Below are positions 4,146-64,000 of a stretch of DNA of 64,000 nt, piece by piece. The translations under genes and the position numbers were made by a program. Under the pieces are notes generated by a model. The model was not told where the DNA came from. It made no database searches and saw only the letters and a program-made list of their open reading frames with translations. This DNA is from a virus: the IMG/VR virus record IMGVR_UViG_3300042691_051382; one strand, 5' to 3'. Within the stretch, counting starts at the first letter, position 1; every line of letters begins with the position of its first letter.

Positions 4146-4534
4146 TATCGATTTCTCGTTATGTTAAATGTGAAATTGAACGGAGTCTGCAAATTTATAA
4201 TACTATAAGTGAGCGACACAGAAAAACTATTTCCATCTAAATTTGGCAAAATAACAACATCAAATAGTTGAACTCGAGGTTCATATTTTTTTATCAATTG
4301 TGAAACCACAGTTTTCATTGCATCCAGATGAAGACTCGATGTGTTTTCAAACAAACAATCGTATATTCCAGAATTTATTTCGGGATGAAATGGTTTTTCG
4401 TATCGTTTGAGCATCAAAAGATTTTTTAAAGATTTTTTGACGCTATCCGATTCGACAAATTGAGTAACATCATTCGTCAAAGGATGACGATTGAAGTTGA
4501 GGTCCAAATCGCGATAATTTACAATTTTTGCCAT
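4145..4534 (-). CDS. baseplate wedge subunit gp25
   Basis: YRDLDLNF..HP...D, EKPFHPE, YEPRV. Start moved to ATG 4534 (SD ACAGGA, TATAAATA upstream). Confidence 0.9.
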   Translation of the reverse strand: MAKIVNYRDLDLNFNRHPLTNDVTQFVESDSVKKSLKNLLMLKRYEKPFHPEINSGIYDCLFENTSSLHLDAMKTVVSQLIKKYEPRVQLFDVVILPNLDGNSFSVSLTYSIINLQTPFNFTFNITRNR

Positions 4535-5034: not shown

Positions 5035-5852
5035 TAGTTGTCGGTCTCCACTACTTGAACTTTCATACACGTTGTAGCGGTTGCGTTGCTACCATTTATC
5101 TGAACAAGCACCAAACAAGCATCAGTAACATCAGGTATCCCACATGGCATACGACCTGTCACAAAATCGCAGTCGTTGGATCTACCCACTTCATCCACAG
5201 CAAACACACCCAAAGGTTTGAATAATGTAACTCCAAATGCTCCAGCAGTACCGGTTGTTGCGGACAATGTTACGCTTGCTACACTTCTGACTCCAGTATC
5301 GCCGTATTGCAACGGAAGCATTATCATTCTAGTTGCTTCGCGATATCCAGTGTTTCCGATTGTTGTAAGAGGAGTGGTTCTACTGTTGGTTCCTGCTTGG
5401 TTGGTGTAACTTGCACTTACTTTTGTGGTTGTTGCTCCAATTTGAGTGTATATTGTCAATCCAATCATAACACCCACACCATCGGTATATCTTGTTAAAG
5501 ATGCGGTTGGAAGATTGGTGGTCTGAGCTGTTGTGACAGTTCCGCTGAGACCACCTTGATGACTTAAAATATCAACCAACAAAAAATAACCGTTTGTAAA
5601 ATAAGAGGTTATATTTGCGCCAACAAGTTTCAAACGACGCGTACCAGAAACGGCTGGTATGGGAAAAGCGATGTTTCCGGTTCGCGAAAGTGCAATCGCA
5701 GTGGTTGGTGGTGTAGCGGGTACTGGTAATCCCAAAGCCCAAGTGTTGCTGCTTTTTCCTACCGATGCGGCGTTTCCGGAAATAATATATTGTTGCGATT
5801 CGATTTCGTTTTTTACGTAGTTTTTGTACGTTGAAAAATTTGAAATGGGCAT
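5034..5852 (-). CDS. putative virion protein, paralog 3 of a tandem triplet
   Basis: Start at ATG 5852 (TAATG coupling). Shares LTRYTDGVG, YTNQ.G, GDTGVR.V.SVTL.A.TGT.G.FG with the two upstream ORFs. Confidence 0.7.
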   Translation of the reverse strand: MPISNFSTYKNYVKNEIESQQYIISGNAASVGKSSNTWALGLPVPATPPTTAIALSRTGNIAFPIPAVSGTRRLKLVGANITSYFTNGYFLLVDILSHQGGLSGTVTTAQTTNLPTASLTRYTDGVGVMIGLTIYTQIGATTTKVSASYTNQAGTNSRTTPLTTIGNTGYREATRMIMLPLQYGDTGVRSVASVTLSATTGTAGAFGVTLFKPLGVFAVDEVGRSNDCDFVTGRMPCGIPDVTDACLVLVQINGSNATATTCMKVQVVETDN

Positions 5853-41700: not shown

Positions 41701-42062
41701 TGAACGCTAAAACCTACGCCAGTACCGCAAAGCAAGTTGTACATAGCTTCTTGAAAGAATCGCAAACGATCAACGTAAGAACCACAGCAATTATAACTGC
41801 GAGCGTTATGACGAAAAACGGCATCGCCAGCAAATTGCAGATTGCGTTGACTGCCGACACAAATTTTGTTTTCATAAGCATCAAATGCTTCGTCGATAAA
41901 AGGCTTGAGAGTTTCAATCGATCCTGCATATTTAGAAAGGTGCATACCACGACTGCGTTCGATACATTCTTTCCATGTTTCTCGACGATGAAGCTCGGTG
42001 TTATACTTGGCGTACTTTGAAACAAAGGTATAATCTGCAAGTGCCTGTACTTGTGCGTTCAT
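38772..42062 (-). CDS. nrdJ: class II (B12-dependent) ribonucleotide reductase with intein
   Basis: YNC, GTGVGFSV, GGIRRSA, QR..SNNS, GEPG, NP[intein]CVE, CNL, TCIKP.G, IACAGG.C; no small subunit nearby. Confidence 0.9.
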   Translation of the reverse strand: MNAQVQALADYTFVSKYAKYNTELHRRETWKECIERSRGMHLSKYAGSIETLKPFIDEAFDAYENKICVGSQRNLQFAGDAVFRHNARSYNCCGSYVDRLRFFQEAMYNLLCGTGVGFSVQAHHVAKLPPLDLREKTEIVTHEISDSIEGWADSIGILVSSYFKIVDQNSIYPEYQGKVVKFVYKNIREKGTPFSHGIGRAPGAEPLRNAHEKIRKLLDECVANGQTNLKPINAYDIVMHSSDAVLSGGIRRSATICIFSVDDQEMMNAKTGNWFIDNPQRGRSNNSALLLKNNTSPEQFKLLIESTKQFGEPGFYWSDSTEMIPNPCLPSDAWVLTKQGPRQIKDLIGKSFDAYVNGKLYHSPTGFFHTGYQKIYQVKTSEGYSVSATHNHQFLIVDEHNNQSWKTIDQLNIGDCMVIHDHDNIQWDGKLNEREGWLLGSLLGDGCISDDTAYLDYWGDNANIMKNIALDNLKSNNMIAEHVSGYSQIATVTKQRVESVNLKKLANSYGMRRGNKNLNENIEEISSDAYRGFLRGYFDADGSVQGNTAKGTSIRLCSVNMHNLEIVQRMLLRLGIYSKIFANRRPAGERKIKNGVYACQACHELVISRNMIGRYLDLIGFEDPEKKLKLNNLVCSYQKNFYKTKFVATVSSIVQKDSEMVYDCTVNDIHAFDANGFYTHNCVEIGFYCYDADGNSGWQFCNLSTINGSKIKTAADFRKAARAATIIGTLQAGYTDFPYLGKVTESIVRREALLGVSITGMMENPKVLLSAYYQREVASELSAVNREVAAIIGINPAARITCIKPEGSTSCMLGTSSGIHPHHAKRYIRRVQANKMEAPAQYYANLNPRSVEESSWSANNTDVCISFACEVNDNAILKNQIDAIQMLDNVKTTQMNWVASGCNAELGTQPWLSHNVSNTVVVKPEEWDAVEHYIYDNRQYFAGVSLIGSSGDKDYTQAPFTEVFTPAEIVEIYGNASLFASGIIEEAMMSYGDLWKACATALGYGENLDEKRVLEHEELHRQNKLNWIVRVKKFAKKYYGNDVKKVTYLLKDVYNWKLWYDIVKEHKKVDYTELYEGTNTTNGTQEIACAGGVCLV
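40020..41081 (-). mobile_element. intein (354 aa) with LAGLIDADG homing endonuclease
   Basis: Begins CLPSDAWV, has block B T.NH, LLGSLLGDG and FLRGYFDADG, ends FYTHN before Cys+1. Confidence 0.93.
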
Positions 42063-42922: not shown

Positions 42923-43944
42923 ACTCGTTTCCACTTTGAAAGTTTAAGATGTGCCGCCAAACCTTGATGGGTATTATTATCTATCATCTGCTGAATCCAC
43001 TCGATCGACATCAAACCCATATGCATGTCGTTGACATCTTTGAAAGTTACAGTATCGGGCCATATACAAACTTTCAAACCAGCATCGATAGCATCTTTGA
43101 TTGTCGCAACAATTTCTGCATTTCTGGGTTCGTTGTCGTACACAAAAACTGTATTGCTTGTGTCGAACGGCATGCGATCAAAAGAAATGGAAGATCCTGC
43201 TAGAGCAACCGAATTGTCGATAAACAAACTATCGATTGGTCCTTCAAAACAATAATTCTTTTTGGTTTGATCGAGTCGTTCCATGCCATAAATTTTAGCC
43301 ACATCCTGTTCGCTGTCGCGAATGGTTATATATCGACTAACAGCGTTGGGATCAAGAGCACGACCCTGGATTGCAAACAGTTTTTTGTCGGCTGTATAAA
43401 AAGGAATCACAATTCGCTCGTCTCTGGGTCCACCCGATTCATGCAAGTTCTTTTTTGCTGCTTCGTTGAAGTTTTCTGTGTAGTAAAGAATACGCCAGTG
43501 CTTTTCGGGAATCAAACGATCAGCAATATATTTTTTAGCATGATGATCATCGGGTAGATCGCAGATTCTAGTACAACACAGCAAATCGTTTTTGGTATCA
43601 AAAACAGGTTTGTTTGAAGCAACAATTTTAGTTATTTCTTTGTAGTTGGCTGTGGTACCTGAAGTAAACTTTTCTTTGATCGTTTCCAAACGATAATCTT
43701 CGTACAACACTCCACCAGTTTGTTCTAAAAATTTTGGAAAAGTTGTGGAGTACGAACAGTTGTGGCACTTGACAAAAAACTTACCCTTTTCTTCAAAAAA
43801 GAAAAAACGAGTTTTGTTTTTATTTTTCTTGGAATCACCGCAAATAGGACAACGACACACAGCAACATTGTTGCGCTTCCAGGAAAACTTTTCAAGGCGA
43901 GCACCAACAAGATTGATATATTTCATTTCAACAAAATAACTCAT
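42919..43944 (-). CDS. DNA primase gp61
   Basis: RCPICGDS.K...K.R, CHNC, QGR, EGPIDS.F, DNEPRN, KD.ND. Confidence 0.95.
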   Translation of the reverse strand: MSYFVEMKYINLVGARLEKFSWKRNNVAVCRCPICGDSKKNKNKTRFFFFEEKGKFFVKCHNCSYSTTFPKFLEQTGGVLYEDYRLETIKEKFTSGTTANYKEITKIVASNKPVFDTKNDLLCCTRICDLPDDHHAKKYIADRLIPEKHWRILYYTENFNEAAKKNLHESGGPRDERIVIPFYTADKKLFAIQGRALDPNAVSRYITIRDSEQDVAKIYGMERLDQTKKNYCFEGPIDSLFIDNSVALAGSSISFDRMPFDTSNTVFVYDNEPRNAEIVATIKDAIDAGLKVCIWPDTVTFKDVNDMHMGLMSIEWIQQMIDNNTHQGLAAHLKLSKWKRV

Positions 43945-45287
43945 GAGAAAAATCCTTCAAGCGTATTCTTGCGTTCGTGACTCCATTTGACTGCATCAAG
44001 CAAACCAATCAAAGGTTCCAGAAATGTTTTCTCAAACTGCAAATTGTAGTCAACATACTGTGTCAATTTCATTTCGGGTGGGATTTTTCCAACATAACTT
44101 ATCACACGATCGCCTGTTGGATTTGGCTCGCGCAAATACAAAAAGCGAATTTTGTCTCCGTCGCCGATCTTGGTGTACAGTTTGTTGAGTTTCATTTTGT
44201 CGAGCATGTGATTGAATATCAAAGCACCCTTGACGTGAATGGGTGTTCCCTTCGTGAATACAGTACTCTTGCTGGCATATTTTTCCAGTCCATTTACGCC
44301 ACGAGGAAAAGAAATATCTTCGGGTTGACTTGCAAAAAACACTTGCTTGAAATTGTCAATATAATCAATCAAACTGTTTTCGTCTTGCGTGAGAATAATC
44401 TTAACACACTGCTTGAGATGTTCACGACAAATCGATGGAGTACTGGATCTTTGAACTTCGATGCCCATGATCTTGAGTTGCGGTTCGCTGTAACGAACTC
44501 CTTCGCTGTCGTGAACATTCAAGCAATACATTTTCTTGGCTTTCCACAAGCCACGATCCGCAATAACTTCGCGCTTCATTTCCATCTTTTGTGAATACGC
44601 ATTCATACGATCAGCCAATTGCTGATAGCACTTTTCGATGTACGGATCCATGATCTGCTTGCAGAACTTGTCCAAGAAATCAACAATCTTGGTTTTGTTG
44701 GTTTCGTTGGGACACGAAACTTCAACAGCCGTTTTGAGATTCAAGTACACGCTGTCGGTGTCGCTTGCGATCACATAATCACGGTTTTTTGTTTTGAACA
44801 ACTTGTTGAGATATTCGTTGAGTTTGTTTTGAATCCAACGAATACTCAACTGCCCCGACAGCGTGATTGCTTCGGCTTGACGCACATCGTAGTGACGGAA
44901 ATACTGATTACCCAAAGCACCATACGCAGAATTTAATGCTATCTTGTATGCCGATTGTTGAGTATTGTATTTGTCTATTTGTTTTTGAATATTGTTTTTT
45001 TGATCGATGGTAATGTCTTTTTTTGATGCTTCTTTTTTTAACAAAGACATTTTTTGTTTACTGTATTTGCGCTTTTCGTACATAGAATTCATTAATTCTG
45101 GTAAAAATCCATCAGAATCTTTTTTATAAATTGTACCATTGGATGCAATAGCAAAATTCAGCAATTGACATGCTTCAAAGATCAAAGGATTTACTTTACC
45201 ATCAATTATAGAGTCTGGAGAAATACTAGTTATTCTTCCATTTTCCATCGAATCCAGTAGAATTTTTAATGCTTCTTTTTTTGTCAT
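43941..45287 (-). CDS. DNA polymerase gp43, C-terminal fragment
   Basis: GFLP, K..LNS.YGA.GN (motif B), DTDS (motif C), KK.Y, clamp-binding TLEGFF; ATG 45287 overlaps the endonuclease stop. Confidence 0.93.
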   Translation of the reverse strand: MTKKEALKILLDSMENGRITSISPDSIIDGKVNPLIFEACQLLNFAIASNGTIYKKDSDGFLPELMNSMYEKRKYSKQKMSLLKKEASKKDITIDQKNNIQKQIDKYNTQQSAYKIALNSAYGALGNQYFRHYDVRQAEAITLSGQLSIRWIQNKLNEYLNKLFKTKNRDYVIASDTDSVYLNLKTAVEVSCPNETNKTKIVDFLDKFCKQIMDPYIEKCYQQLADRMNAYSQKMEMKREVIADRGLWKAKKMYCLNVHDSEGVRYSEPQLKIMGIEVQRSSTPSICREHLKQCVKIILTQDENSLIDYIDNFKQVFFASQPEDISFPRGVNGLEKYASKSTVFTKGTPIHVKGALIFNHMLDKMKLNKLYTKIGDGDKIRFLYLREPNPTGDRVISYVGKIPPEMKLTQYVDYNLQFEKTFLEPLIGLLDAVKWSHERKNTLEGFFS

Positions 45288-45952
45288 TTGAAACGGCATT
45301 CCCTAGAACAAAACAATCTAGTTTTGATGCAATTTGGTGTATAAAATTCTTTATTACAATTTTTGCATATCCATTTTTTCTTTTTTGGATATAAAAGTTC
45401 TTTTGGTTTTTTTCCCGCGATTCCTAATTCCTGTATTCTTTTTTTAACTAAAGAAGCACTGCAATTATTTTCTTTTGCTATCTCTGGCTTCGTTTTTCCT
45501 TTGACTACAAATTCTTCGTATAATTCTTCATAAGTAGGATCATATATCCTTAATCCTTTGCAAGCTTTGCGAAAAGATTGTATAGATTCTTCTGACCATT
45601 CTGGACGTTTACAGCCAGAATACGATCCACCTTTAAAATCGGATATATTAAATAATATCCCACCGTCAACAAAACGTCTACCATGTTTTTTAATATATTC
45701 ATGTTCAATATTATATGCTTGTTCGTCTGAAATGTTTTCGGCTAGAATAACTATATGTGGTTTTTTACCAGATTCCATCATTGATTTTATTTTATAATAT
45801 AAGTATGGATTTGTCGTTTTTTCCGGATTTTTCCATAGAGATGGTTTTAAATGAGCATTTTTTCGATTGTCGTGACCTTTTCCAACATAAAATCCCGGAT
45901 CTTCGGATTCTTCTGTTTCTTTATACAGATACACGTAACAGTTATTTTTCAT
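45284..45952 (-). CDS. free-standing GIY-YIG-type homing endonuclease
   Basis: YVYLY...FYVGKG...R...H, A...E...I...G...L.N; C-terminal HTH-like segment and CxxC...FCS..C zinc finger; AT-rich. Confidence 0.8.
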   Translation of the reverse strand: MKNNCYVYLYKETEESEDPGFYVGKGHDNRKNAHLKPSLWKNPEKTTNPYLYYKIKSMMESGKKPHIVILAENISDEQAYNIEHEYIKKHGRRFVDGGILFNISDFKGGSYSGCKRPEWSEESIQSFRKACKGLRIYDPTYEELYEEFVVKGKTKPEIAKENNCSASLVKKRIQELGIAGKKPKELLYPKKKKWICKNCNKEFYTPNCIKTRLFCSRECRFK

Positions 45953-45959
45953 TGCATTC

Positions 45960-46006
45960 TCCTAAATAAGATGGGGGTATAGTATGTATCCCCATCTTAT
46001 TTAGGA
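45960..46006 (-). promoter_or_regulatory. 17-bp hairpin sequestering the endonuclease RBS, with a late-type CTAAATA in the 5' arm
   Basis: TCCTAAATAAGATGGGG / CCCCATCTTATTTAGGA perfect inverted repeat; AGGAG SD overlaps the stem. Confidence 0.8.
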
Positions 46007-46007
46007 A

Positions 46008-47282
46008 TTAGCAATTTTTGATCATCTGCAACAGGTCTTCTTCGGTGACCATCTTGCTAGGGCAAATATTAAATTGTGAAATAGTCATAGGATACATAGA
46101 ATTTAAATCATAACTCACAACCCAATCGTGAAATCCAACGATCGGATCTTTTACGTATGCGCCTGCGTATTGACTGTCTTTGTTTTTGTCGCGACGTTGC
46201 GAGATCACAATGTTGCTGCGAAGCAGATGGTTGTAAATGATCGTGTCCCACATTCGCACTTGACCAAACACATCGTTGTAATTGGTTTTAGCGAGATAAG
46301 CCATCGATATGTGCAGTTCAAGCAGATTGAGTTTGTCGTCCAGTTCACGAACCAGATCCACGTCTTGAACGTTATATTCAACAAACTTTTGAAAGTTTTT
46401 GGTGTAGAAATCTCGGATGTGACCGTACTCGGAATAATCAACTTTCTTTTTGCCGAGTTCTATGCTTGCGATATAATCAAGCTTGTAGCTTTCGCGTGGC
46501 GCAAGAACATACTTGCGATACAACTCGTAGTAATCGAGAATATCAACGCCCGAGATTTTGTAAACCTGTTGCGTTTTGCCTTTGTAATCTACTTCGTCGT
46601 CACGCAGATTGCGCCACGGCGAAAGGCTGCGAGCCACATCGTTTCCGCGCTTGCCAAACACACGCTTGATGCGATTCACAATATATGGAATATCGTAGAA
46701 ACGAACATTCCATCCTGTCACTACATCCGGATCAATCTCTCGCCAAATCTCAACAAACTTTTCTAAAAGATCTTTTTCGTCTTGAAAAACTTGTTGATAT
46801 ACATTCGCATCTTCAGGAAGTATGAAATTGTTTGTCGCAAGTACATACTTGCGATCATTGTATCTAACGGTGATAACATTGATTTTCTCGCTTGCGTCTT
46901 TGGGATCGCTAAAGCCATCTTCGCATTCGTTCTCAATATCTATGTACACCGTACGAATCGTATTCATGTCATACTCGGCATCCTCGTGATTGGGATACAA
47001 ACTAGAGATGTATTGATAAATCCAATCGGTATGACCGTGGACCTCAAAGTTTTGAACATCCGAATATGTTTCCACAAAATCTTCGCAATCGCGAATGGTT
47101 CCGGGTTGAATTGGTTCCACAGCCACACCCTTGATGGTGCGATATGTTGCTGTCGCATTTTTGCTAGGAACATACAACGTCGGTCTAAATGCAATGCGCT
47201 GTTCCACACGCTTGCCGTTCTCGTAACCACGATACAAAATATTGTCGCCGCTCGTTTGAACGTTTGTGTAAAATGTATTCAT
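46008..47282 (-). CDS. DNA polymerase gp43, N-terminal fragment (exonuclease + motif A)
   Basis: MNTFYTNV, DIE, TGWN..FYD.PY, LDY..LY.K, YN..DV, Y.GAYVK.P, SYDLNSMYP; start at ATG 47282. Confidence 0.93.
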   Translation of the reverse strand: MNTFYTNVQTSGDNILYRGYENGKRVEQRIAFRPTLYVPSKNATATYRTIKGVAVEPIQPGTIRDCEDFVETYSDVQNFEVHGHTDWIYQYISSLYPNHEDAEYDMNTIRTVYIDIENECEDGFSDPKDASEKINVITVRYNDRKYVLATNNFILPEDANVYQQVFQDEKDLLEKFVEIWREIDPDVVTGWNVRFYDIPYIVNRIKRVFGKRGNDVARSLSPWRNLRDDEVDYKGKTQQVYKISGVDILDYYELYRKYVLAPRESYKLDYIASIELGKKKVDYSEYGHIRDFYTKNFQKFVEYNVQDVDLVRELDDKLNLLELHISMAYLAKTNYNDVFGQVRMWDTIIYNHLLRSNIVISQRRDKNKDSQYAGAYVKDPIVGFHDWVVSYDLNSMYPMTISQFNICPSKMVTEEDLLQMIKNC

Positions 47283-47288
47283 ATAAAA

Positions 47289-47360
47289 AGCCACCTGCGG
47301 GATTTGCACCCGCGCTCTGACGCTTACAAGGCGACCGCATTACTACTCTGCTAAGGTGGC
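47289..47360 (-). tRNA. tRNA-Thr(TGT), atypical
   Basis: GCCACCT/AGGTGGC acceptor, loop CT-TGT-AA; T-loop reads TGCAAAT and the anticodon stem has a T-T mismatch. Confidence 0.75.
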
Positions 47361-55355: not shown

Positions 55356-57260
55356 TTACACAATCAAATTTGGATAAAAGCTTTCCAATATTTTTCTATA
55401 TTGATCGGGAGTGTAAATTTTTCCGGCAAACCATACACCCGAAACAGAAGATGGATTCGAGCTACCAACAATTTGACTCGAGTTGTAATAATTGTACGCT
55501 GCTTGCACGCTGTCCCATTCGGCTTGCGAATAAATTCTGAAACCAGTGTACGAAAAATGCGAAAGATCGAGCGTGTCGGAATTGTCGCTGCGCCCAGCCA
55601 ATCCTTTTGTGTCGGCAGTGAATCCTTGAGTGAGCAAAAACATATTAACAGCCGCAACGCGGTCGTTGTTGTTGCTCACTTGCACCGCAGCTTGACGTGC
55701 AAAATCTAAACTAGAATCGTTGTACTCTTGAGGCGGTGATGCAACAAACAACCAATAAAGATTGCTGTTGTTCCATCCGTTTGCAGAATATACAGCATTG
55801 AATCGATTTATTATTGCTTGCCAATTGTCGGCAAGTCCCGATGCAGTATCGCTGCTGAGTCCAGCATTTGGACCAACCGATGTGGTACCAGCTTCGTACC
55901 CTGTTGATGGACGATCGTTTACGCCTCCGTGTACGCGTATCAACAACGGAGCCGATGCAGCGTTTGTGTATCCTGCGTGCTCTGCCATGCCTTGCAAAAC
56001 GTTTGTTAAAAATTCGTTGCTTTGATTTTGCAAAGTTACCGCATGTGTTCGTGCACCGCGACTACCAAGATACATCATGACGGTGGATGCATAACCGTTT
56101 GTTGCTCCACTCACCGCAGCTGCCGAAAACATGCTGCACCAAGGACCGCTGGCTCCCGCATTAAACGGCATGAATACGGTGGTGTAATCGCGACCGGCAC
56201 TCGCACCGATTGCAAAATCCAAACGACGCATGTATTGAGTTGCGCTGCCATCGAGCGTTTGCGAACCGGCTGTGAGAGTGCTGCCAGTTCGCACCGGCGT
56301 AAAAAATCCGCCAGCACTGGCTCCGTACGTTTCCACAAAAACAGTGCTGCCGCTGTAACCGTTGCCTTGGTATTGACTCGTCAACGAACTGCCGGTTACG
56401 CTGGCCAACGGAAGATTTGTGCCGGCGTAATTGCCGCCGATTCCGATCGAGATGGCAGCATCGCCCGAAAACAAATTGCTTCCCGATTCGCTCACCGATA
56501 CGGTTGCGGTCAATCCCGGAAAACTTGCGTGCAAAGCTGTGCGTATGTTGCTGGCAAAAGTTGAACTGTTGCTCGAATAAGTGATGCCTGCGGTGGTGGT
56601 CAAACCCAACTGCAACTGAAAAGTTCCGCCAGCCGAACTCAGGTAGTTGTTGATGTTCACGACTTGCGTTTGATCTTGATTGCTACTTTTGCGAGCCGCA
56701 ACGGTTGTGGCGCGACCGTTCACCACCGCGTCGGTGACAAGGTACCAGTGTTGAAACACCAAATCGCTGGCGAGACGTTCGAACGGTCGCGAATGACTCG
56801 CCACGTTGCTGCCGTGCACCGCAAAACCAAACGTGGTGTTCGACAAATTGCTGGCGGTCACCACAAACGGTCGCAGCGCACCCATGTACGTGCGCGTGGC
56901 ATCGGTTGTGGCAGAGCCGCTGCCGCGATTGGTGACCAAACTGTGCCACGCAACCGGCAAGCTGGCGGTGAATCCCGCATCGGCAGTGGTGCTGGGCGAT
57001 GCGTTGTTGCTGAGCGTGTCTTGATTGGCACCGTGACCGATTGCGGTGTTTTCTCCGGTGCCAATCAACCCGGTTCCGAAACGTTGCAAATTTTGACTGT
57101 TGAGAGCCAACACAACTCCCGAATCCCAACCGTGACCTTGATATTGTGTGGTGCTGTCGCCGATCAACCCGATGCTGACACGAGCGGTACCACCGTACAA
57201 TTGTTGTAAAAACCCGTTGATTTTACTGGCGTTGTGAACAGCTGTGACTAGACTTTGCAT
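55356..57260 (-). CDS. SGNH/GDSL-like hydrolase with inserted beta-rich domains
   Basis: IGDS (block I), GGVND (block III), DLSH (block V); late-type CATAAATA upstream. Confidence 0.6.
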   Translation of the reverse strand: MQSLVTAVHNASKINGFLQQLYGGTARVSIGLIGDSTTQYQGHGWDSGVVLALNSQNLQRFGTGLIGTGENTAIGHGANQDTLSNNASPSTTADAGFTASLPVAWHSLVTNRGSGSATTDATRTYMGALRPFVVTASNLSNTTFGFAVHGSNVASHSRPFERLASDLVFQHWYLVTDAVVNGRATTVAARKSSNQDQTQVVNINNYLSSAGGTFQLQLGLTTTAGITYSSNSSTFASNIRTALHASFPGLTATVSVSESGSNLFSGDAAISIGIGGNYAGTNLPLASVTGSSLTSQYQGNGYSGSTVFVETYGASAGGFFTPVRTGSTLTAGSQTLDGSATQYMRRLDFAIGASAGRDYTTVFMPFNAGASGPWCSMFSAAAVSGATNGYASTVMMYLGSRGARTHAVTLQNQSNEFLTNVLQGMAEHAGYTNAASAPLLIRVHGGVNDRPSTGYEAGTTSVGPNAGLSSDTASGLADNWQAIINRFNAVYSANGWNNSNLYWLFVASPPQEYNDSSLDFARQAAVQVSNNNDRVAAVNMFLLTQGFTADTKGLAGRSDNSDTLDLSHFSYTGFRIYSQAEWDSVQAAYNYYNSSQIVGSSNPSSVSGVWFAGKIYTPDQYRKILESFYPNLIV

Positions 57261-57639: not shown

Positions 57640-57990
57640 GAGAAAAATTCAAGAAAAACAATTTTTGCAGTTTTTTTTTGCACGGTGCATATACCCTAAC
57701 AAAAATCTTAAATAGTTTGGTAACGTAAAAATTTTTGTGGCGATTTTTTTTGCGGGGGGCTAGTGCAACAAGGGGGGGGTGGCTTACGTATGGGGGGGGT
57801 GGATCAAAAATCTTAAATTTGTTTGGGTGTGTTTGTTTTTTTGTGGCGATTTTTTTGTGGGGGTTTTGCGGGGTTTTTGCGGGGTTTTTGCGGGGTTTTT
57901 GGGCGGTCGGAAAATTTGCGAAATTTGGTGGCTATAGGGGTATAGGGCTTTGGGGGGTCGGCTTATATATGGGGGGGGTAGCCAATTTGC
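57640..57990. repeat. non-coding G/T-tract region with 11-bp repeats (GGGGTTTTTGC)
   Basis: G-runs at 57859, 57870, 57881, 57892; duplicated TTTTGTGGCGATTTTTTT and GGCTTA.[AG]TATGGGGGGGGT. Confidence 0.85.
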
Positions 57991-58101
57991 CGATTTGACT
58001 TGTCGAGTCGAGTCGGCTTGTGACCGGGACTTGCGGGTGGCCAGACCCGAGTCAACCCCGAGCCTAACCCTACCCGAACAAAAAAATTTCGTGCTTGTCA
58101 C

Positions 58102-58130
58102 TCGACACGCCTACGGTCGAAGCCTATACT
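58102..58130 (+). promoter_or_regulatory. cassette promoter 1
   Basis: TCGACA-cgc-CTACGGT-N7-TATACT. Confidence 0.85.
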
Positions 58131-58206
58131 CTCTTGTCGGAAGCGGGTCGCGTGACTCGCACCGACCGAAACCTGCTCCCTATGGGGAGCCTTTGGAGAC
58201 TGTGTC

Positions 58207-58608
58207 ATGGCTAAGAATGAAATCCGTCAAGCATACAACAAGATTTGTGCCGAGGCGAAATCCGCAGGCAAGTGGTTCGTGAGCCTGTACGCAATCGAGT
58301 CGTATTACGGTGGCCCCGAAGAAGGTGGGTGGTGGGGCAACGACTGCGTGCTTGTGGAATACCAAGAAGTGCGCACCGAGGAGGAGGCAGATCTTCTCGC
58401 AGAGAAGATCACGCAACTCGCCGCACAGATGACCGAGGATGCCAAACGGCAACACGGCGAGCGATGCTTGCGTGAAAGCGAGTGGTGCGCCGCTCGTGGT
58501 CTCGACGACGACTTCCTACCCGAAGTCGATGGTCACGACGAATACCGAGTCGTGATCGAGGAAACTCCTGGTTCGCAAGAACATCGAGGATCCCGTCACT
58601 ATGAATGA
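58207..58608 (+). CDS. cassette 1 hypothetical protein
   Basis: 133 aa; V.LY.....YGGPEEGGWW motif; GGAG SD. Confidence 0.85.
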   Translation: MAKNEIRQAYNKICAEAKSAGKWFVSLYAIESYYGGPEEGGWWGNDCVLVEYQEVRTEEEADLLAEKITQLAAQMTEDAKRQHGERCLRESEWCAARGLDDDFLPEVDGHDEYRVVIEETPGSQEHRGSRHYE

Positions 58609-58724
58609 TCGTTTCACCGCAGCGATGCGGTGATGCCGCCAGACCCGATGGTACTGTATGGTGTGCGATTTGTGCCAACCCCGAGCCTAACCCTACCCGA
58701 ACGCAAATATTCTGTTGCGAATAG

Positions 58725-58753
58725 TAGACGCGCCTACGGTCGAAGGCTATACT
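58725..58753 (+). promoter_or_regulatory. cassette promoter 2
   Basis: TAGACG-cgc-CTACGGT-N7-TATACT. Confidence 0.85.
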
Positions 58754-58829
58754 CTGGTGTCTGGAGTGAGTCGCGTGACTCGCACCGACCGAAACCTGCT
58801 CCCTATGGGGAGCCTTTGGAGACTGTGTC

Positions 58830-59153
58830 ATGGGCAAGATCGGTAAAGTCGCAACCAAGATTAGACGTGATGAAAATGGTAACGTTTTTGTTCGTTACCA
58901 CAACACCGACGTGGTGACTATCACGGACCATTCGGTGATCTTGAACCACGGCGGCTGGATCACCCGCACCACTCTTCGACGCATGAATCAAGCAAGCGCT
59001 CAGTGGAACCTCGGGTATCGGGTGTTCCAACGCAAGGGTCAACTCATGCTTCACTGGGTTGGCTGTAACTTCAAGTGGAACGGAGCCACCAGCGGCGACA
59101 GCCGCACGTTCACCATGAACTGGTGCGAGAACCCACTCGATCAAGTCAAGTAA
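58830..59153 (+). CDS. cassette 2 hypothetical protein
   Basis: 107 aa; V.YH.T.VV...LN.GGW.T.TT..RMN. Confidence 0.85.
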   Translation: MGKIGKVATKIRRDENGNVFVRYHNTDVVTITDHSVILNHGGWITRTTLRRMNQASAQWNLGYRVFQRKGQLMLHWVGCNFKWNGATSGDSRTFTMNWCENPLDQVK

Positions 59154-59165
59154 AAACCTCCAGTA

Positions 59166-59196
59166 GCCCCAGGGAGACCGATTCCCTGGGGCGTTT
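59166..59196 (+). terminator. cassette terminator type A
   Basis: GCCCCAGGGA-gaccgat-TCCCTGGGGC-gttt; identical copy at about 60588-60618. Confidence 0.75.
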
Positions 59197-59283
59197 CGTT
59201 GGTGCGCCAGACCCGATGTGGTACGGTGATGTGCGATTTGTACCCCGACCGAACCCCAAACACAAATATTCTGCTCGAAACAG

Positions 59284-59312
59284 TTGACACCGCTACGGTC
59301 GAAGGCTATACT
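59284..59312 (+). promoter_or_regulatory. cassette promoter 3
   Basis: TTGACA-ccg-CTACGGT-N7-TATACT. Confidence 0.9.
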
Positions 59313-59356
59313 TGTGTGTGGAGCGAATGGGTCGCTCCCGTACTGGAGACTGAATC

Positions 59357-59773
59357 ATGCTTAGCGTATCCGAAGCCGTTGAAACTGTCGCTCGCATCCA
59401 AGCACTTCACCTTGCGGATCGTGCCGCACTCGCAAGTGCCGCCAAGCCCCGCAACTCGGAGATTCCCCCAGGCGAGTATCCCGTAGACTTCACGGTGCGA
59501 ATCGTTGGTATGGTCAAGAAGGGCGAAGACTACGTTTCTACGCAACCGCAAGCCATCAACCCGTGGGCGTTGTGTGGCTACCTTCTCAGCAAACTCAACG
59601 CCACCACCGCCGCAAGCGTGGCGCAGTACGTCGCCGAAGCGTACAAGAGCGGCGAAGACTTTGACGCATATAAGAAATATGCGGAAGCGGCTATGGAAAC
59701 TATCGCCGAAGCCACCACCACCACCAAGAGCGGGCGAACCGACTGTGTGGTGTCGGTGACCGTAATCAAATAA
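59357..59773 (+). CDS. cassette 3 hypothetical protein
   Basis: 138 aa; G.Y.VDF.V...G.V..GEDY. Confidence 0.85.
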   Translation: MLSVSEAVETVARIQALHLADRAALASAAKPRNSEIPPGEYPVDFTVRIVGMVKKGEDYVSTQPQAINPWALCGYLLSKLNATTAASVAQYVAEAYKSGEDFDAYKKYAEAAMETIAEATTTTKSGRTDCVVSVTVIK

Positions 59774-59784
59774 ACCTCCAGTAG

Positions 59785-59814
59785 CCCAGCGGGACCGCCA
59801 ACCGCTGGGTGTTT
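59785..59814 (+). terminator. cassette terminator type B
   Basis: CCCAGCGG-gaccgccaa-CCGCTGGG-(t/c)gttt; copies at about 62067 and 63507. Confidence 0.75.
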
Positions 59815-59921
59815 CGTTGGTGCGCCAGACCCGAGTCAGCCCCAGGCTGTGCGATTTGTGCCAACCCCGAGCCGAACAAACACCTAATTTCAACAATTTG
59901 CATCCGAATTGTTGAAACAAG

Positions 59922-59950
59922 TCGACGCGCCTACGGTCGAAGCCTATGCT
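59922..59950 (+). promoter_or_regulatory. cassette promoter 4
   Basis: TCGACG-cgc-CTACGGT-N7-TATGCT. Confidence 0.8.
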
Positions 59951-60005
59951 TCCCTGTCGGAAGCGGGTCGCGTGACTCGCGCCGACCGAAACCAGGAGTC
60001 AAGTC

Positions 60006-60578
60006 ATGGCAAACAAGCGTATCGTTTCAATCCCCGTCTCGGTGTATCATATCGTCGGTCTCGCGGTTGCGGGTCAAGATGGACGATACTGGTATCACTC
60101 GGAGGGTGCTACCCTCCAAACGGCTGCCGAAACCCTAAAGGTTTCGGCGGAACATTTCGCGAGTGTACTCGCGATCACCTCACCTCAAGTCCCCGTCGCA
60201 CGCAACGGTAGGATTACGGTAGGGTTTTTGAGCAAGGGATTGCGCTGGGCCATGATGCCGTCGGTGCATAGCGCACTGGATCACTATCTCGCCACGGGCG
60301 AGATTCGTGGTCCCAAGACGGGACCGTTCGCTCGCGCATTGCTCGGCGACGAGCAAGCGATTGTATTGGATGTTTGGATGGCACGTGCATTCGGCGTGCC
60401 GCAAGGGTGGTTCAAACTCGTGGACTGCCGCGAGAAATGCGAGGCGATGATTCGCCAAGCGGCAGCGATTCTCGGATGGACCCCCGCCCAAGTTCAGGCG
60501 GCGGTTTGGACCGAGATGACCCGCAAGCGAGGCGGCGGAAGCCTCCAGTTGATGCGGTGGGTCGATATGTACAAATAA
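60006..60578 (+). CDS. cassette 4 protein, HhH-glycosylase-like fold (tentative)
   Basis: G..WY, LA.TSP...V..N, GPK...F...L.GD...V.D.WM.RA, TPA.VQA..W. Confidence 0.7.
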   Translation: MANKRIVSIPVSVYHIVGLAVAGQDGRYWYHSEGATLQTAAETLKVSAEHFASVLAITSPQVPVARNGRITVGFLSKGLRWAMMPSVHSALDHYLATGEIRGPKTGPFARALLGDEQAIVLDVWMARAFGVPQGWFKLVDCREKCEAMIRQAAAILGWTPAQVQAAVWTEMTRKRGGGSLQLMRWVDMYK

Positions 60579-60704
60579 CCTCCAGTAGCCCCAGGGAGAC
60601 CGATTCCCTGGGGCGTTTCGCTAGCCGCCGGACCCGATGGGATACAATGTTGTGCGATTTGTACCCCAACCGAACCCCGAACAAACTTTTTTGCTAGCAT
60701 TTTC

Positions 60705-60733
60705 TTGACACCGCTACGGTCGCAGGCTATACT
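60705..60733 (+). promoter_or_regulatory. cassette promoter 5
   Basis: TTGACA-ccg-CTACGGT-N7-TATACT. Confidence 0.9.
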
Positions 60734-60776
60734 TGTGTGCGGGCGCGATGGTGCGACTCGCTTCTGGAGAATCGGC

Positions 60777-60941
60777 ATGGAAGAAACCAAAAAATGTAAG
60801 TGTGGCGAAGCGGCTGTGTGGGTTCCCAAGGAACCCGCTGCGGGATTGCCCGCAGGGTGGGTATGCGCCAAGGAATCGACAATCGCTCCGTTTGTCGATG
60901 AAGGGTGCGATTACTTTGTACCCGAATCAAACCCCAACTAG
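60777..60941 (+). CDS. cassette 5 small Cys-containing protein (54 aa)
   Basis: ATG 60777 after CTGGAG; MEETKKCKCG...WVC...GCDYFVPESNPN. Confidence 0.7.
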   Translation: MEETKKCKCGEAAVWVPKEPAAGLPAGWVCAKESTIAPFVDEGCDYFVPESNPN

Positions 60942-61047
60942 GAAAAAAGCCCCGAAAGGGGCACGCCGCCAGACCCGAGACGTATCGGTCGCTGCACCCT
61001 AACAAACACCTAATCTCTACGATTTTCAAGCGAATCGTTGAAATGAG

Positions 61048-61076
61048 TCGACGCGCCTACGGTTGCGGGATATACT
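61048..61076 (+). promoter_or_regulatory. cassette promoter 6
   Basis: TCGACG-cgc-CTACGGT-N7-TATACT. Confidence 0.85.
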
Positions 61077-61123
61077 GTTCATGCCGGAAGCGAATGGTTC
61101 GCATCTGGCATCTGGAGAATGTT

Positions 61124-61489
61124 ATGCAAACTGAAACGGCTGAAACAATCAAGACAATCTTTGAACCGGCTTTGGGCAGGGAGATTCCCGTCGCACGTCG
61201 ATGGGAGGGTGTACCCAAGTGGATCACCACCCACTTCATCGTTGTTGATGGAGCCGGGAACTGGGGTCGGGGTCGAACCCTGACCGATGCCAAGGGTGTA
61301 GTGTTGAAGGCGGCAGGCGCAAAGTCGCACGCCCACTTCAACCGGGTGGGCATGTTGGCGTACATGATCCGGCAGGACGAACGCTCGCCCGAACCGTGGG
61401 TCAACGGTTACGGAATGATCTGCAACTATGCGGATCAGTTCAACGGTGATTACAGCTTGATCGAAGAGATCAAGTGCAAGCGCAAATAA
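61124..61489 (+). CDS. cassette 6 hypothetical protein (121 aa)
   Basis: ATG 61124 after CTGGAG; WGRG.T..DA. Confidence 0.8.
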   Translation: MQTETAETIKTIFEPALGREIPVARRWEGVPKWITTHFIVVDGAGNWGRGRTLTDAKGVVLKAAGAKSHAHFNRVGMLAYMIRQDERSPEPWVNGYGMICNYADQFNGDYSLIEEIKCKRK

Positions 61490-61622
61490 CAATCCGGGTT
61501 TGAACCTCCCCACGGGAACATTCCCGTGGGGATTTGTTTGCGCCAGCCAGACCCGAGCCAGCCAGCGGCTGTGCGATTTGTACCCCAACAGAACCCGAAC
61601 ACAAATATTCTGCTCGAAACAG

Positions 61623-61651
61623 TTGACGGTGCTACGGTCGGAGAGTATACT
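61623..61651 (+). promoter_or_regulatory. cassette promoter 7
   Basis: TTGACG-gtg-CTACGGT-N7-TATACT. Confidence 0.85.
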
Positions 61652-61695
61652 TCAGTGTCGAGCGAATGGGTCGCTCGAACAAACTGGAGACTGCG

Positions 61696-62055
61696 ATGAA
61701 ATATTCTGAAACAATCCGTGTGGATGTTCGTCGGTTCTTTGAAGACTTTGAGTGTGAAGTCGAGTATGATATGCACAACAACTCGGCACAAGATCGTGCC
61801 GAAGGGTTAGGTGCTACCACGCTCGATGAGGGTAGTGTCACCATCACGAATCTCAACGAACTCTGGCAAGAGTTCGTAGACGACGCAGTTCGTGAAGACT
61901 ACGCAGTCGAGGGTACGGGAATCAAAGCGGTGGTGACGCTTCCCGAAGAGACGACCAACACCAAGAGATATCCCGTCGAACAAGTCCACTTCGAGGACTT
62001 TGAAGGATACTTGATCGAGTCGCTGATCAATCGACTCAGCGACAACAAGTGGTGA
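61696..62055 (+). CDS. cassette 7 acidic hypothetical protein (119 aa)
   Basis: ATG 61696 after CTGGAG. Confidence 0.8.
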   Translation: MKYSETIRVDVRRFFEDFECEVEYDMHNNSAQDRAEGLGATTLDEGSVTITNLNELWQEFVDDAVREDYAVEGTGIKAVVTLPEETTNTKRYPVEQVHFEDFEGYLIESLINRLSDNKW

Positions 62056-62183
62056 ACCTCCAGTAGCCCAGCGGGACCGCCAACCGCTGGGCGTTTCGTT
62101 GGTGCGCCAGACCCGAGTCAGCCCCAGGCTGTGCGATTTGTACCCCGACCGAACCCCAAACAAACTTTTTCGCTAGGATTTTC

Positions 62184-62212
62184 TTGACACCGCTACGGTT
62201 GCGGGCTATGCT
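62184..62212 (+). promoter_or_regulatory. cassette promoter 8
   Basis: TTGACA-ccg-CTACGGT-N7-TATGCT. Confidence 0.85.
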
Positions 62213-62260
62213 TCCCTGCGGGGAGCGAATGGTTCGCCTCCTGCATCTGGAGACCGAATC

Positions 62261-62518
62261 ATGTGCAGTTGCGAAGACCGTCCGTGCTGTGGCTGTGGTT
62301 ACGATGACTTCACGGTTCCCGAAAGCGGGTACGATGCCGAAGCGTACTACGACGATGAGGAAGCCGAGGACATGGGCGACGGCGAACCGATGGGTTCGCA
62401 CGACATGAGCGACGATGCCGATGCGCTCGCAAGCGCAGGGTTCGGCATGGACGAGGACTACAATCACTTCGACTCAATCGAAGACCAATGGCTCGACGGG
62501 TCGTACGAAGGTGAATGA
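62261..62518 (+). CDS. cassette 8 very acidic protein with N-terminal Cys cluster
   Basis: MCSCEDRPCCGCG...DDADALASAGFG.DEDY. Confidence 0.8.
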   Translation: MCSCEDRPCCGCGYDDFTVPESGYDAEAYYDDEEAEDMGDGEPMGSHDMSDDADALASAGFGMDEDYNHFDSIEDQWLDGSYEGE

Positions 62519-62631
62519 CCCAGCCCCGCAAGGGGCATGCGCCAGACCCGAGCCACACACGCCGCCAGACCCGAGTCAACCGCAACCCGATCCCGAACAG
62601 AACCCAAACACAAATATTCTGTTGCGAATAG

Positions 62632-62660
62632 TAGACACGCCTACGGTCGAAGGCTATACT
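62632..62660 (+). promoter_or_regulatory. cassette promoter 9
   Basis: TAGACA-cgc-CTACGGT-N7-TATACT. Confidence 0.85.
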
Positions 62661-62733
62661 TCCCCTGTCGGGAGCGAGTGGTTCGCAACCGACCGAACCC
62701 GCTCCCGCACGGGAGCAACTGGAGCCTAGTATC

Positions 62734-63495
62734 ATGCAACTTCTCGATGACGGTGATTCGAATACTAAACTGAGCAAGAATACCGCTCGCACGTGGGGGC
62801 TGTCGCTTGCCCCAGCCGATTCAAGCGGCTACAACGTTTGCCCGTGGAGCACCGATGGCTGTCGCACGGCGTGCGTAGCCTACGCTGGTCTCTCGATCGT
62901 ATGGGCGAGCATTCATGCGGCACGGGTGCGAAAGACCCGTTGGTTCTTCCAAGAACGTCAAGCGTTCGTGTCTCGCTTGAACCGTGAAATCACCAACAAG
63001 AATCGTTGGTGTGCTCGCAACGATACCATCGGATACATGCGCTTGAATGTGTATTCGGATATTGGTTGGGAGAACATGGTTGACCTGAATCGGTCGAACA
63101 TCCGCTTCTACGATTACACCAAGTCACTCAAGCGAGCATGGGCGCAACTGTGCGATTCGTGCTACCGTCTGTGCTACTCGTACAATGAATCAAGCAACCC
63201 CGCCGAAGTGCGCAAGTTTCTCGAAGCGGGTGGAACCATTGCGATGGTTCGAGCCGACATCAAGTACGTCAACAAGAACAACAAGGGACCGATCCCCGCA
63301 ACCGTCACCATCGACGGGGTCGAGTTTCCGACGTTCGATGCGGACGAACAAGACAATCGATTCCTTGACCCGAAGGGTGCGGTTGGAATCCTCCGACTCA
63401 AGGGCGACAAAGAGATGCGCAAGCATGCAATCGACACCCACTTCGCCCAAGGAACCCCACACCACACTCACCTCACCGTGAGTGCCAAGAAGTAA
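62734..63495 (+). CDS. cassette 9 GP88-family-like protein
   Basis: N.KL.K, L.LAPA..SG.NVCP....GC...C, RLN..SDI.W, FYDYTK, D..D.RFLD..G....L..KG. Confidence 0.75.
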   Translation: MQLLDDGDSNTKLSKNTARTWGLSLAPADSSGYNVCPWSTDGCRTACVAYAGLSIVWASIHAARVRKTRWFFQERQAFVSRLNREITNKNRWCARNDTIGYMRLNVYSDIGWENMVDLNRSNIRFYDYTKSLKRAWAQLCDSCYRLCYSYNESSNPAEVRKFLEAGGTIAMVRADIKYVNKNNKGPIPATVTIDGVEFPTFDADEQDNRFLDPKGAVGILRLKGDKEMRKHAIDTHFAQGTPHHTHLTVSAKK

Positions 63496-63614
63496 ACCTC
63501 CAGTAGCCCAGCGGGACCGCCAACCGCTGGGCGTTTCGCTCGCCGCCAGACCCGAGCCAGCCGCTGGTTGTGCGATTTGTGCAACCCAGACGCAACATTT
63601 TTGGTTGCGAAAAG

Positions 63615-63643
63615 TTGACACCGCTACGGTCGCGGGATATACT
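63615..63643 (+). promoter_or_regulatory. cassette promoter 10
   Basis: TTGACA-ccg-CTACGGT-N7-TATACT. Confidence 0.9.
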
Positions 63644-63680
63644 GTGGTGCAAGCAAGCCGCTTGCATCTGGAGAATCACA

Positions 63681-63902
63681 ATGGTCGAGTCGATCAACTG
63701 GGAGTTTGAAACAAGCCGCGCTCGTCGTATGACGGTCGAGAGTCTTCGGTGGAGCATCCAAGACGCTCGCGAGGCGTTGGACTGTGCCGAGGAGATGGAG
63801 CGTGCGGGACTTGCCAACAACGCAGGCAAGTATGCGGATCAAATCCATGTGTACAACGCCGAACTCAACCGCCGATTGCAAGTCGGCAAGCGCAACAAAT
63901 AA
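63681..63902 (+). CDS. cassette 10 hypothetical protein (73 aa)
   Basis: ATG 63681 after CTGGAG; SL...I.DA.EA...GKY.D..H....EL.RR. Confidence 0.8.
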   Translation: MVESINWEFETSRARRMTVESLRWSIQDAREALDCAEEMERAGLANNAGKYADQIHVYNAELNRRLQVGKRNK

Positions 63903-64000
63903 GTTTTTTGCCCTTCATAGCCTCGCTTATCTTTCGACGACGTTCTTCCGAAAGTTTTTTTCCTTTGTTAGCCTCGCTCAACTTTCGACGATGTTCTTCC
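63901..64000 (+). repeat. start of a different ~51-bp tandem repeat (2 copies, truncated)
   Basis: AAGTTTTTT..C.TT..TAGCCTCGCT.A.CTTTCGACGA.GTTCTTCC twice. Confidence 0.75.

Follow-up and report, generated by a model that had tools for sequence, protein, structure and literature searches.

A probable promoter early stem-loop-type gene-shuffling region in an uncultured T4-like myovirus

Near the end of a 64,000-nucleotide viral sequence (IMG/VR record IMGVR_UViG_3300042691_051382, analysed whole and called the window here), ten small genes at positions 58041-63902 are each preceded by a copy of the same long spacer. This array is probably the first half of a hyperplastic region of the promoter early stem-loop (PeSL) type, in which an uncultured T4-like myovirus shuffles genes between repeated spacers. 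In full, the array comprises ~25 small genes over ~12.5 kb, most of them laid out as transcription units of one gene each. PeSLs are composite terminator/promoter elements of T4-type phages that span the interval between the stop codon of one ORFan and the ATG of the next, in clusters within hyperplastic regions; they have been linked to indels, replacements and displaced open reading frames (ORFs), and their excision as mini-circles has been demonstrated (PMC2839356, PMC4122927). They are described from RB49/phi1, PST/T4 and nt-1/KVP40, and in nt-1 six such ORFs follow one another without interruption (Arbiol et al. 2010, PMC2839356; Comeau et al. 2014, PMC4122927).

The ten ORFs of the window all lie on the + strand, encode proteins of 54-253 aa and are mutually dissimilar in an all-against-all BLASTP comparison. 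A homologous spacer of 180-230 nt, from stop codon to ATG, precedes each one, and the ten-spacer alignment has a mean column identity of 59% with 40 invariant columns. Elements occur in a fixed order: a hairpin, the decamer CC(A/G)GACCCGA, the 11-mer GTGCGATTTGT (7 of 10 spacers), a C/A-rich tract, an A/T-rich tract, a promoter, a leader hairpin, GGAG and ATG. An earlier note on this DNA had described ten unrelated + strand ORFs with ordered spacer elements, and the ORF list, BLASTP, the alignment and motif scans bore out all of this. The first hairpin is GC-rich and directly follows the upstream stop codon in 9 of 9 cases. The decamer has 11 matches, all on the + strand between 58041 and 63555 (0.07 expected) and none elsewhere in the 64 kb, and all seven exact copies of the 11-mer in the window fall inside spacers. 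ACCCGA-like C/A-rich repeats occupy the stretch after the GTGCGATTTGT position, and the A/T-rich tract that follows is 20-25 nt long, often with a short inverted repeat. Spacer motifs are absent from the other 58 kb of the window, where a profile hidden Markov model built from the ten spacers, a search that the earlier note had suggested, found no further match on either strand; the same grammar was found in related metagenomic phages (below). The region is also GC-richer than the rest of the window, as had been noted before (0.558 versus 0.42), with a GC content at third codon positions of 0.55-0.69 versus 0.36-0.52 in core genes, and the high GC carries on from the array into the adjoining convergent genes. 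The units are as follows, with promoters and terminators as predicted and B referring to a related phage introduced below.

58023-58206, + strand: spacer 1, first unit, no upstream gene; CCAGACCCGA at 58041-58050; no GTGCGATTTGT
58102-58107 (-35) and 58125-58130 (-10), + strand: spacer 1 promoter; two-hairpin leader, GGAG, ATG at 58207
58207-58608, + strand: ORF1, 133 aa; phrog_24642 (unknown function); no homologue in B
58609-58829, + strand: spacer 2; hairpin; CCAGACCCGA at 58639; GTGCGATTTGT at 58663; promoter 58725-58753; leader like that of spacer 1 (87% over 155 nt)
58830-59153, + strand: ORF2, 107 aa; Pfam Kyano_Gp96 / phrog_554; 38% identity to B4
59154-59356, + strand: spacer 3; anti-Shine-Dalgarno element ACCTCCAG right after the stop codon; terminator hairpin 59166-59192; CCAGACCCGA at 59207; GTGCGATTTGT at 59231
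59284-59312, + strand: spacer 3 promoter, TTGACA-17-TATACT; leader hairpin
59357-59773, + strand: ORF3, 138 aa; no family match; no homologue in B
59774-60005, + strand: spacer 4, mosaic; promoter 59922-59950
60006-60578, + strand: ORF4, 190 aa; Pfam DUF7178; 50% identity to B7
60579-60776, + strand: spacer 5; variant CCGGACCCGA at 60628; GTGCGATTTGT at 60652; promoter 60705-60733
60777-60941, + strand: ORF5, 54 aa, Cys-rich; not in B
60942-61123, + strand: spacer 6; short GC hairpin; CCAGACCCGA at 60969; no GTGCGATTTGT; promoter 61048-61076
61124-61489, + strand: ORF6, 121 aa; 69% identity to B13, which lies elsewhere in B (after the ORF10 homologue) with a different leader
61490-61695, + strand: spacer 7; terminator 61507-61532; CCAGACCCGA at 61547; GTGCGATTTGT at 61571; promoter 61623-61651
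61696-62055, + strand: ORF7, 119 aa; 50% identity to B8, directly after the ORF4 homologue in B
62056-62260, + strand: spacer 8; anti-Shine-Dalgarno element, hairpin; CCAGACCCGA at 62107; GTGCGATTTGT at 62131; promoter 62184-62212
62261-62518, + strand: ORF8, 85 aa, acidic, Cys-rich N-terminus; 82% identity to B9
62519-62733, + strand: spacer 9; two CCAGACCCGA copies (62542, 62565); no GTGCGATTTGT; promoter 62632-62660; two-hairpin leader
62734-63495, + strand: ORF9, 253 aa; Pfam GP88 / phrog_1617; 77% identity to B11
63496-63680, + strand: spacer 10; anti-Shine-Dalgarno element, hairpin; CCAGACCCGA at 63546; GTGCGATTTGT at 63570; promoter 63615-63643
63681-63902, + strand: ORF10, 73 aa; 85% identity to B12
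63865-64000, - strand: GIY-YIG/NUMOD3 homing-endonuclease gene, 3' part only, as the window ends inside it; the entire gene is contig L002 3225-3761

The last codons of ORF5 (60895-60941) contain a degenerate GTGCGATT/ACCCCAA (C/A-rich) spacer module, and the next spacer lacks an 11-mer of its own; the module looks like the footprint of a rearrangement within a spacer.

The pattern GAC-N4-CTACGGTYG-N2-G-N2-TATRCT matches ten times, once per unit (0.00 expected), and the promoter consensus is nnGACr-17 nt-TATrCT with CTACGGTYG invariant at positions 4-12 of the promoter spacer. A scan for sigma-70-type promoters recovered nine of the ten units, each with a 17-nt spacer; the tenth promoter (59922-59950, TCGACG/TATGCT) is visible in the alignment only. 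In all ten units a leader hairpin begins 1-6 nt past the -10 hexamer, with folding z scores against shuffled sequences of -1.5 to -3.5 in nine units and +0.6, no better than the shuffles, in unit 5. The ribosome-binding site is CTGGAG or a near variant, followed by ATG. We treat the promoter and terminator activities of the spacer elements as putative, and early transcription of the array is suggested solely by its near-consensus sigma-70 promoters.

The decamer and 11-mer together form a bipartite motif, (C/T)AGACCCGA-N14-GTGCGATTTGT, in which the gap is exactly 14 nt in 17 of 17 co-occurrences across four phages, although the sequence of the gap varies and the distance to the promoter ranges over 41-82 nt. 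These distances cluster, in two helical phases, the paralogous spacers not being independent of one another. The decamer recurs behind the final hairpin, at the convergent end of the array, with no promoter after it. Because it lies just past the expected 3' end of the terminated RNA, a role at the DNA level appears likelier than one in RNA, and a regulator site, an architectural site and a recombination joint are all candidates. The RNA-level alternative is insulation, in which read-through would be stopped by Rho loading at the C/A-rich tract, a rut site of which CCAGACCCGA would be part. In every spacer the transcribed strand of the tract is indeed rich in C and A and poor in G, the terminators look weak (the hairpin is followed by CGTTTCG with no U run, and only 2 of 9 terminator-side hairpins have a T-rich tail), and the decamer stands after the terminal hairpin even without a following promoter. 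However, the tract spans only ~40-60 nt with the next promoter immediately after it, such that Rho release would land inside the next unit, and a rut site needs neither an invariant decamer nor a fixed 14-nt gap; we consider Rho-dependent insulation quite unlikely. An NtcA/CRP-like reading of TGTGCGATTTGTAC was rejected by inspection, as its spacing is one base short and its half-sites are asymmetric. A search of Rfam returned nothing relevant, with a single match to transfer-messenger RNA (E = 0.61) that we take as chance.

Exact copies of ORF9 occur in at least 15 contigs from ENA and JGI metagenome assemblies. Contig L002 overlaps the window and extends 8.9 kb past its end, and it shows that the array does not stop at 63902, where the earlier note had ended it: ~6.5 kb more lie beyond the minus-strand GIY-YIG/NUMOD3 gene, with six more spacers of the same type and the same promoters and motifs. 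The full array has ~16 spacers (16 by the profile, against about 21 in relative B), 17 promoter cores and ~25 genes, and the + strand block stops at about L002 9925, at convergent genes. The homing-endonuclease gene (GC 0.45) interrupts the array between ORF10 and the next cassette, after which the array resumes; it overlaps the 3' end of ORF10 by 38 nt and is not in B, where the ORF6 homologue stands at that place. The number of NUMOD3 repeats differs by strain, giving an endonuclease of 178 aa in L002 and 236 aa in L003.

Array genes on L002 encode a 104-aa protein, an ArdC-like protein, a sigma-70-family factor, a Destabilase-type lysozyme, a beta-solenoid protein and small unknowns. The ArdC-like gene (L002 4549-5385), an ArdcN single-stranded-DNA-binding domain joined to a zincin metallopeptidase, occupies one cassette just outside the window and has 80% identity in B. 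It is the sole array gene of a recognisable anti-restriction family, and PADLOC gave no match for ten array proteins. The earlier proposal of a host-takeover or anti-defence cargo would thus stand on this single gene, most array genes having no known function; Protein Data Bank sequence searches with ORF9 and ORF4 returned no match. At L002 6227-7172 lies the one tightly coupled gene pair, a sigma-70-family factor of 173 aa that has only regions 2 and 4, and the Destabilase-type lysozyme; these are the most conserved genes of the array (92% and 90% versus B). Homologue searches with the sigma factor found only this lineage plus a weak match to a primary sigma factor. The lysozyme has a signal-like N-terminus, and its N-terminal codons hold an exact GTGCGATTTGT. 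The 226-aa beta-solenoid (YdcK-repeat) gene contains an 18-nt tandem repeat (L002 8240-8620) whose copy number varies between strains, L013 and L002 differing by 36 nt.

Relatives were found by scanning metagenomes with the promoter pattern, followed by exact-protein look-ups. A second phage, relative B, is L052 (from a 99-kb contig), and three further variants are fragments: A (L030/L041), C (L020/L028) and D (L050). The region had no Megablast match among 50,697 phage records; exact-pattern scans of IMG/VR gave one chance match to the promoter motif inside a coding region (L001) and none to the bipartite motif, and an IMG/VR search with the flanking 634-aa protein gave no match. B follows the same spacer grammar, with ~21 spacers, the decamer variants CTAGACCCGA and GCAGACCCGA, the same 11-mer, (C/T)TACGG(T/C) in the promoter spacer and CTGGAG. 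The junction between array and core genes is preserved in B and the flanking genes are syntenic (67% identity for a flanking 185-aa core gene), while the content of the array differs.

With O denoting genes of this phage, primes their homologues in B and HEG the homing-endonuclease gene, the order in this phage is O1-O10, [HEG], O11, ArdC, O13, O14, sigma, lysozyme, onward; in B it is B1 B2 B3 B4(~O2) B5 B6 O4' O7' O8' B10 O9' O10' O6' B14 ArdC' .. O14' sigma' lysozyme', onward. Seven genes occur only in this phage and ten only in B. The O4 and O7 homologues are adjacent in B but separated here by O5 and O6, B10 is missing from this phage, the endonuclease gene is additional, and the gene before ArdC is O11 here and B14 in B; O6 and O19 are translocated between the two. 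Variant D lacks B1 and has an additional 103-aa cassette between spacers, and in variant C the B4 gene is at 45% identity whereas its neighbours are at 85-98% (B5 and B6 at 96-98%). A fixed gene order and content among relatives had been named in the earlier note as the outcome that would speak against exchangeable cassettes; we found neither to be fixed, with insertions, deletions, translocation and replacements between relatives. Shared array genes range from 38 to 92% identity between the two phages, on either side of the 67% of the flanking core gene, which points to exchange of individual cassettes between lineages. The promoter and leader before B's O6 homologue resemble the O11 leader of this phage, not its O6 leader. 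Because that leader is of the O11 type, and O6 and O11 have their first codons in common, one junction can be placed at the border between leader and start codon.

Mis-joined contigs could in principle produce both the repeats and a GC-rich block, and GC does jump at the boundary and many contig ends lie inside spacers. Yet the identical sequence, including the G/T-rich boundary junction, was assembled independently from several samples by two centres (L003, 100% over 6,065 nt), and the same core-gene junction recurs in B. Exact inter-spacer repeats of up to ~56 nt account for the contig breaks. For the same reason we rejected the piling up of contig ends in spacers as a sign of population-level rearrangement. 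An assembly artefact is next to impossible.

Within the genome, most spacers have their best match in a paralogue (85-94% over 100-166 nt), with the orthologues in B at 72-78%, and the 5' (terminator) and 3' (promoter/leader) halves of a spacer have different best partners. Spacer 4 is 94% identical to spacer 8 in its 5' part, up to GTGCGATTTGT, after which it is like spacer 2, then spacer 6, and ends in a spacer 1-type leader. Judged by these matches, the spacers recombine as mosaics.

We infer the following mechanism. In each unit, an intrinsic-terminator-like hairpin would close the upstream unit, and a non-transcribed stretch would carry the bipartite motif and the ACCCGA-like C/A-rich repeats. 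The UP-element-like A/T-rich tract would then lead into the near-consensus promoter, to be transcribed by host sigma-70 RNA polymerase; the hairpin expected at the 5' terminus of the mRNA may protect it from 5'-end-dependent decay, with CTGGAG serving as the ribosome-binding site. Because the same element repeats head to tail between unrelated genes, recombination between the 180-230 nt copies would delete, insert, move or replace whole genes. Such exchange could take place within one genome or between co-infecting relatives, via the T4-type phage or host recombination machinery, and every product would stay correctly expressed.

Exchange might instead be site-specific, with the bipartite motif as an attC-like recombination site for a specific phage or host protein and the array as a true integron analogue. 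The gap of 14 nt, invariant despite variable gap sequence and promoter distance, would fit such a site, as would a decamer at every cassette boundary and at the promoterless convergent end, and one mosaic breakpoint (spacer 4 versus spacer 8) falls directly after GTGCGATTTGT. We regard site-specific exchange as very unlikely: no integrase, resolvase or transposase family is recorded among the called genes of either array, and the only nuclease is the GIY-YIG homing endonuclease, present in one phage only. The best-resolved junction, that of the O6 move, lies near the -10 hexamer and start codon, away from the motif; several spacer breakpoints fall at different modules, as homologous exchange predicts; and 3 of the 10 units in the window lack the 11-mer.

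A different account of the motifs would make them regulator-binding sites, with recombination as a by-product: (C)TACGGT as the operator of a phage shut-off protein, and the bipartite motif as the site of an activator or architectural protein. (C)TACGGT lies at about -26 to -20, where RNA polymerase usually makes no base-specific contact, and it is better conserved than the -35 hexamer, in which only GAC is invariant; this conservation suggests an operator for coordinate shut-off. The motifs are also conserved across phages that are only 67% identical in the flanking core gene, and the array-encoded sigma factor makes a programmed switch off these promoters plausible. On the other hand, no candidate DNA-binding regulator was identified, the bipartite motif keeps no single helical phase relative to the promoter, and it has 0 matches in 185,579 species genomes, on which ground we rejected it as a recognisable host regulon site or a Chi-like host sequence. 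The promoter pattern had ten single matches in bacterial genomes, in unrelated metagenome-assembled genomes and at about the level of chance by a rough estimate; none carried AGACCCGA, and they gave no clue to the host. Regulator binding is a tentative reading that we take seriously without favouring it, and any roles given here to the three extra invariant motifs are putative.

In about half of the units, an anti-Shine-Dalgarno (anti-SD) element, A(A)CC(C)TCCAG, also comes immediately behind the stop codon; it is complementary to the CTGGAG Shine-Dalgarno (SD) sequence of the same cassette. The sites are these:

59154-59166, 59774-59786, 60579-60590, 62056-62068 and 63496-63508, window: anti-SD sites
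4332-4345 and 5386-5400, L002: anti-SD sites

Partition-function folds of the predicted full-length monocistronic mRNAs indicated pairing between the SD and this 3' element with probabilities of 0.75-1.0 in all seven anti-SD cassettes folded from this phage, and of at least 0.85 in five of seven cassettes of B. The predicted probability of the SD being paired was 0.82-1.00 with the element intact versus 0.23-0.82 after its replacement. In B4 the pair is UUGGAG/CUCCAA, with both sides changed. The SD is thus predicted to pair with the anti-SD after the stop codon in array mRNAs. Anti-SD elements in the 3' untranslated region, complementary to the SD of the same mRNA, are known from icaR of S. 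aureus (PMC3868564) and hbs of B. subtilis (PMC5737220). In contrast to these, the array element is a reusable module across many unrelated phage genes, and its pairing is a thermodynamic prediction only. The spaced bipartite motif, the promoter-spacer heptamer and the SD/anti-SD pairing appear to be new elements here. A more ambitious reading would join two of them, with the bipartite motif as a protein-recognised joint for cassette exchange or control and the SD/anti-SD pair as an mRNA panhandle that times translation or stability, which would amount to a portable, self-regulating cassette format undescribed in phages; we think this combination unlikely.

The array is an elaborate form of the PeSL gene-shuffling regions. 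As with PeSLs, it lies in a T4-like genome, in a variable region next to conserved core modules, with many similar copies clustered between small ORFs. Each copy runs from stop codon to ATG with a stem-loop, an A/T-rich tract, a sigma-70-type promoter with N17 and an SD, and indels, replacements and displacements occur between relatives at the elements, as seen in the gene maps, the O6 leader swap and the mosaics. Unlike PeSLs, the array has the decamer and 11-mer at a fixed gap, the ACCCGA-like repeats, the promoter-spacer heptamer, a second hairpin downstream of the -10 hexamer and the anti-SD in about half of its units. It also has a GC of 0.56 in a 0.42 genome, in a phage with at most 36-38% gp6 identity to any cultured phage. 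Whereas PeSL mini-circles are experimental, the array is known here from assemblies.

Several points weigh against a PeSL assignment. The array spacer, at 180-230 nt, is twice as long as the ~100 bp conserved in PeSLs, and the PeSL model leaves unexplained the decamer, the 11-mer, the heptamer and the hairpin downstream of the -10 hexamer, as it does the GC-rich composition of the array and the convergent genes. The far end is not single-gene: distal promoters at L002 5713-5739, 7255-7281 and 9209-9235 belong to a second class (CTACGGTTGGTGAGTATAGT, with a short AAGGAGA leader), lack a leader hairpin, and each drives several genes. Gene order does not vary among the near-identical strains (contigs L003-L011), and no ongoing rearrangement was caught; crossover points between the relatives are only roughly placeable at 50-85% divergence. 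Expression timing and promoter function are read here from sequence alone.

The earlier note had called the array an integron-like but integrase-free platform. Like integrons, it consists of unrelated single-gene cassettes in one orientation, with a recurring boundary element and a content that varies between relatives, and the picture of spacers as joints for adding, removing or moving single genes holds up. No IntI, integrase or recombinase Pfam family was recorded on the called genes of L002 or L052, nor in Pfam scans of 18 array proteins. The array differs from integrons in having no IntI, no attI/attC and no shared cassette promoter (Pc); nearly all cassettes come with a promoter of their own, the boundary motifs are non-palindromic and exchange looks homologous, not site-specific. 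Because no recombinase family was recorded and promoters are per cassette, the integron comparison is only an analogy, and what the array represents is the PeSL phenomenon, not a new kind of platform.

In the SPO1 host-takeover module and the early clusters of T4, small early genes stand behind many strong host-type promoters, with terminators, and the promoters are alike only in their consensus hexamers. The array shares the clustering of small genes and the host-type promoters, but here the entire intergenic region is homologous. As a PeSL-type region, the array would carry such shuffling beyond the T4-like phages of enterobacteria and Vibrio into a very distant T4-like lineage that only metagenomes have revealed, and would support the view that repeated expression cassettes generally serve large lytic phages for trying out accessory genes. 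The bipartite motif, the heptamer and the SD/anti-SD pair are concrete elements that could reveal how the array is regulated or recombined, the first and last being the parts most worth experiments, and ~25 early-gene candidates, one of them ArdC-like, are marked for anti-defence interest.

The genome that hosts the array is that of a distant, uncultured T4-like myovirus. T4-type genes in the window encode the baseplate parts gp6, gp53 and gp5, a Gp18-like tail sheath domain, T4 RNase H and a family B DNA polymerase, alongside a tail-collar fibre, an intein-containing ribonucleotide reductase and four tRNAs. Among cultured phages, those closest in gp6 are Methylophilales phage Melnitz and Pelagibacter myophages (36-38% identity).

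Between the minus-strand core genes and the array, positions 57640-58020 form a G/T-rich, gene-free divergent region in which GGGGTTTTTGC occurs four times with a period of 11 nt, alongside runs of G6-G8, and which is about 77-78% conserved in B, C and D; it could be an origin or a regulatory region. The adjoining 634-aa protein (55356-57260, - strand) has only its last 25 residues in common with its counterpart in B (L052 4546-6495), and B has an extra 923-aa gene at this locus, which is probably a swapped tail-fibre or host-range module. The large subunit of ribonucleotide reductase (38772-42062, - strand) has an inserted intein bearing a LAGLIDADG endonuclease domain. The family B DNA polymerase (43941-47309, - strand) is split into two ORFs with other ORFs between them, one of 433 aa (exonuclease domain and the start of the polymerase domain) and one of 452 aa (the rest), and a tRNA-Thr overlaps the start of the upstream ORF.

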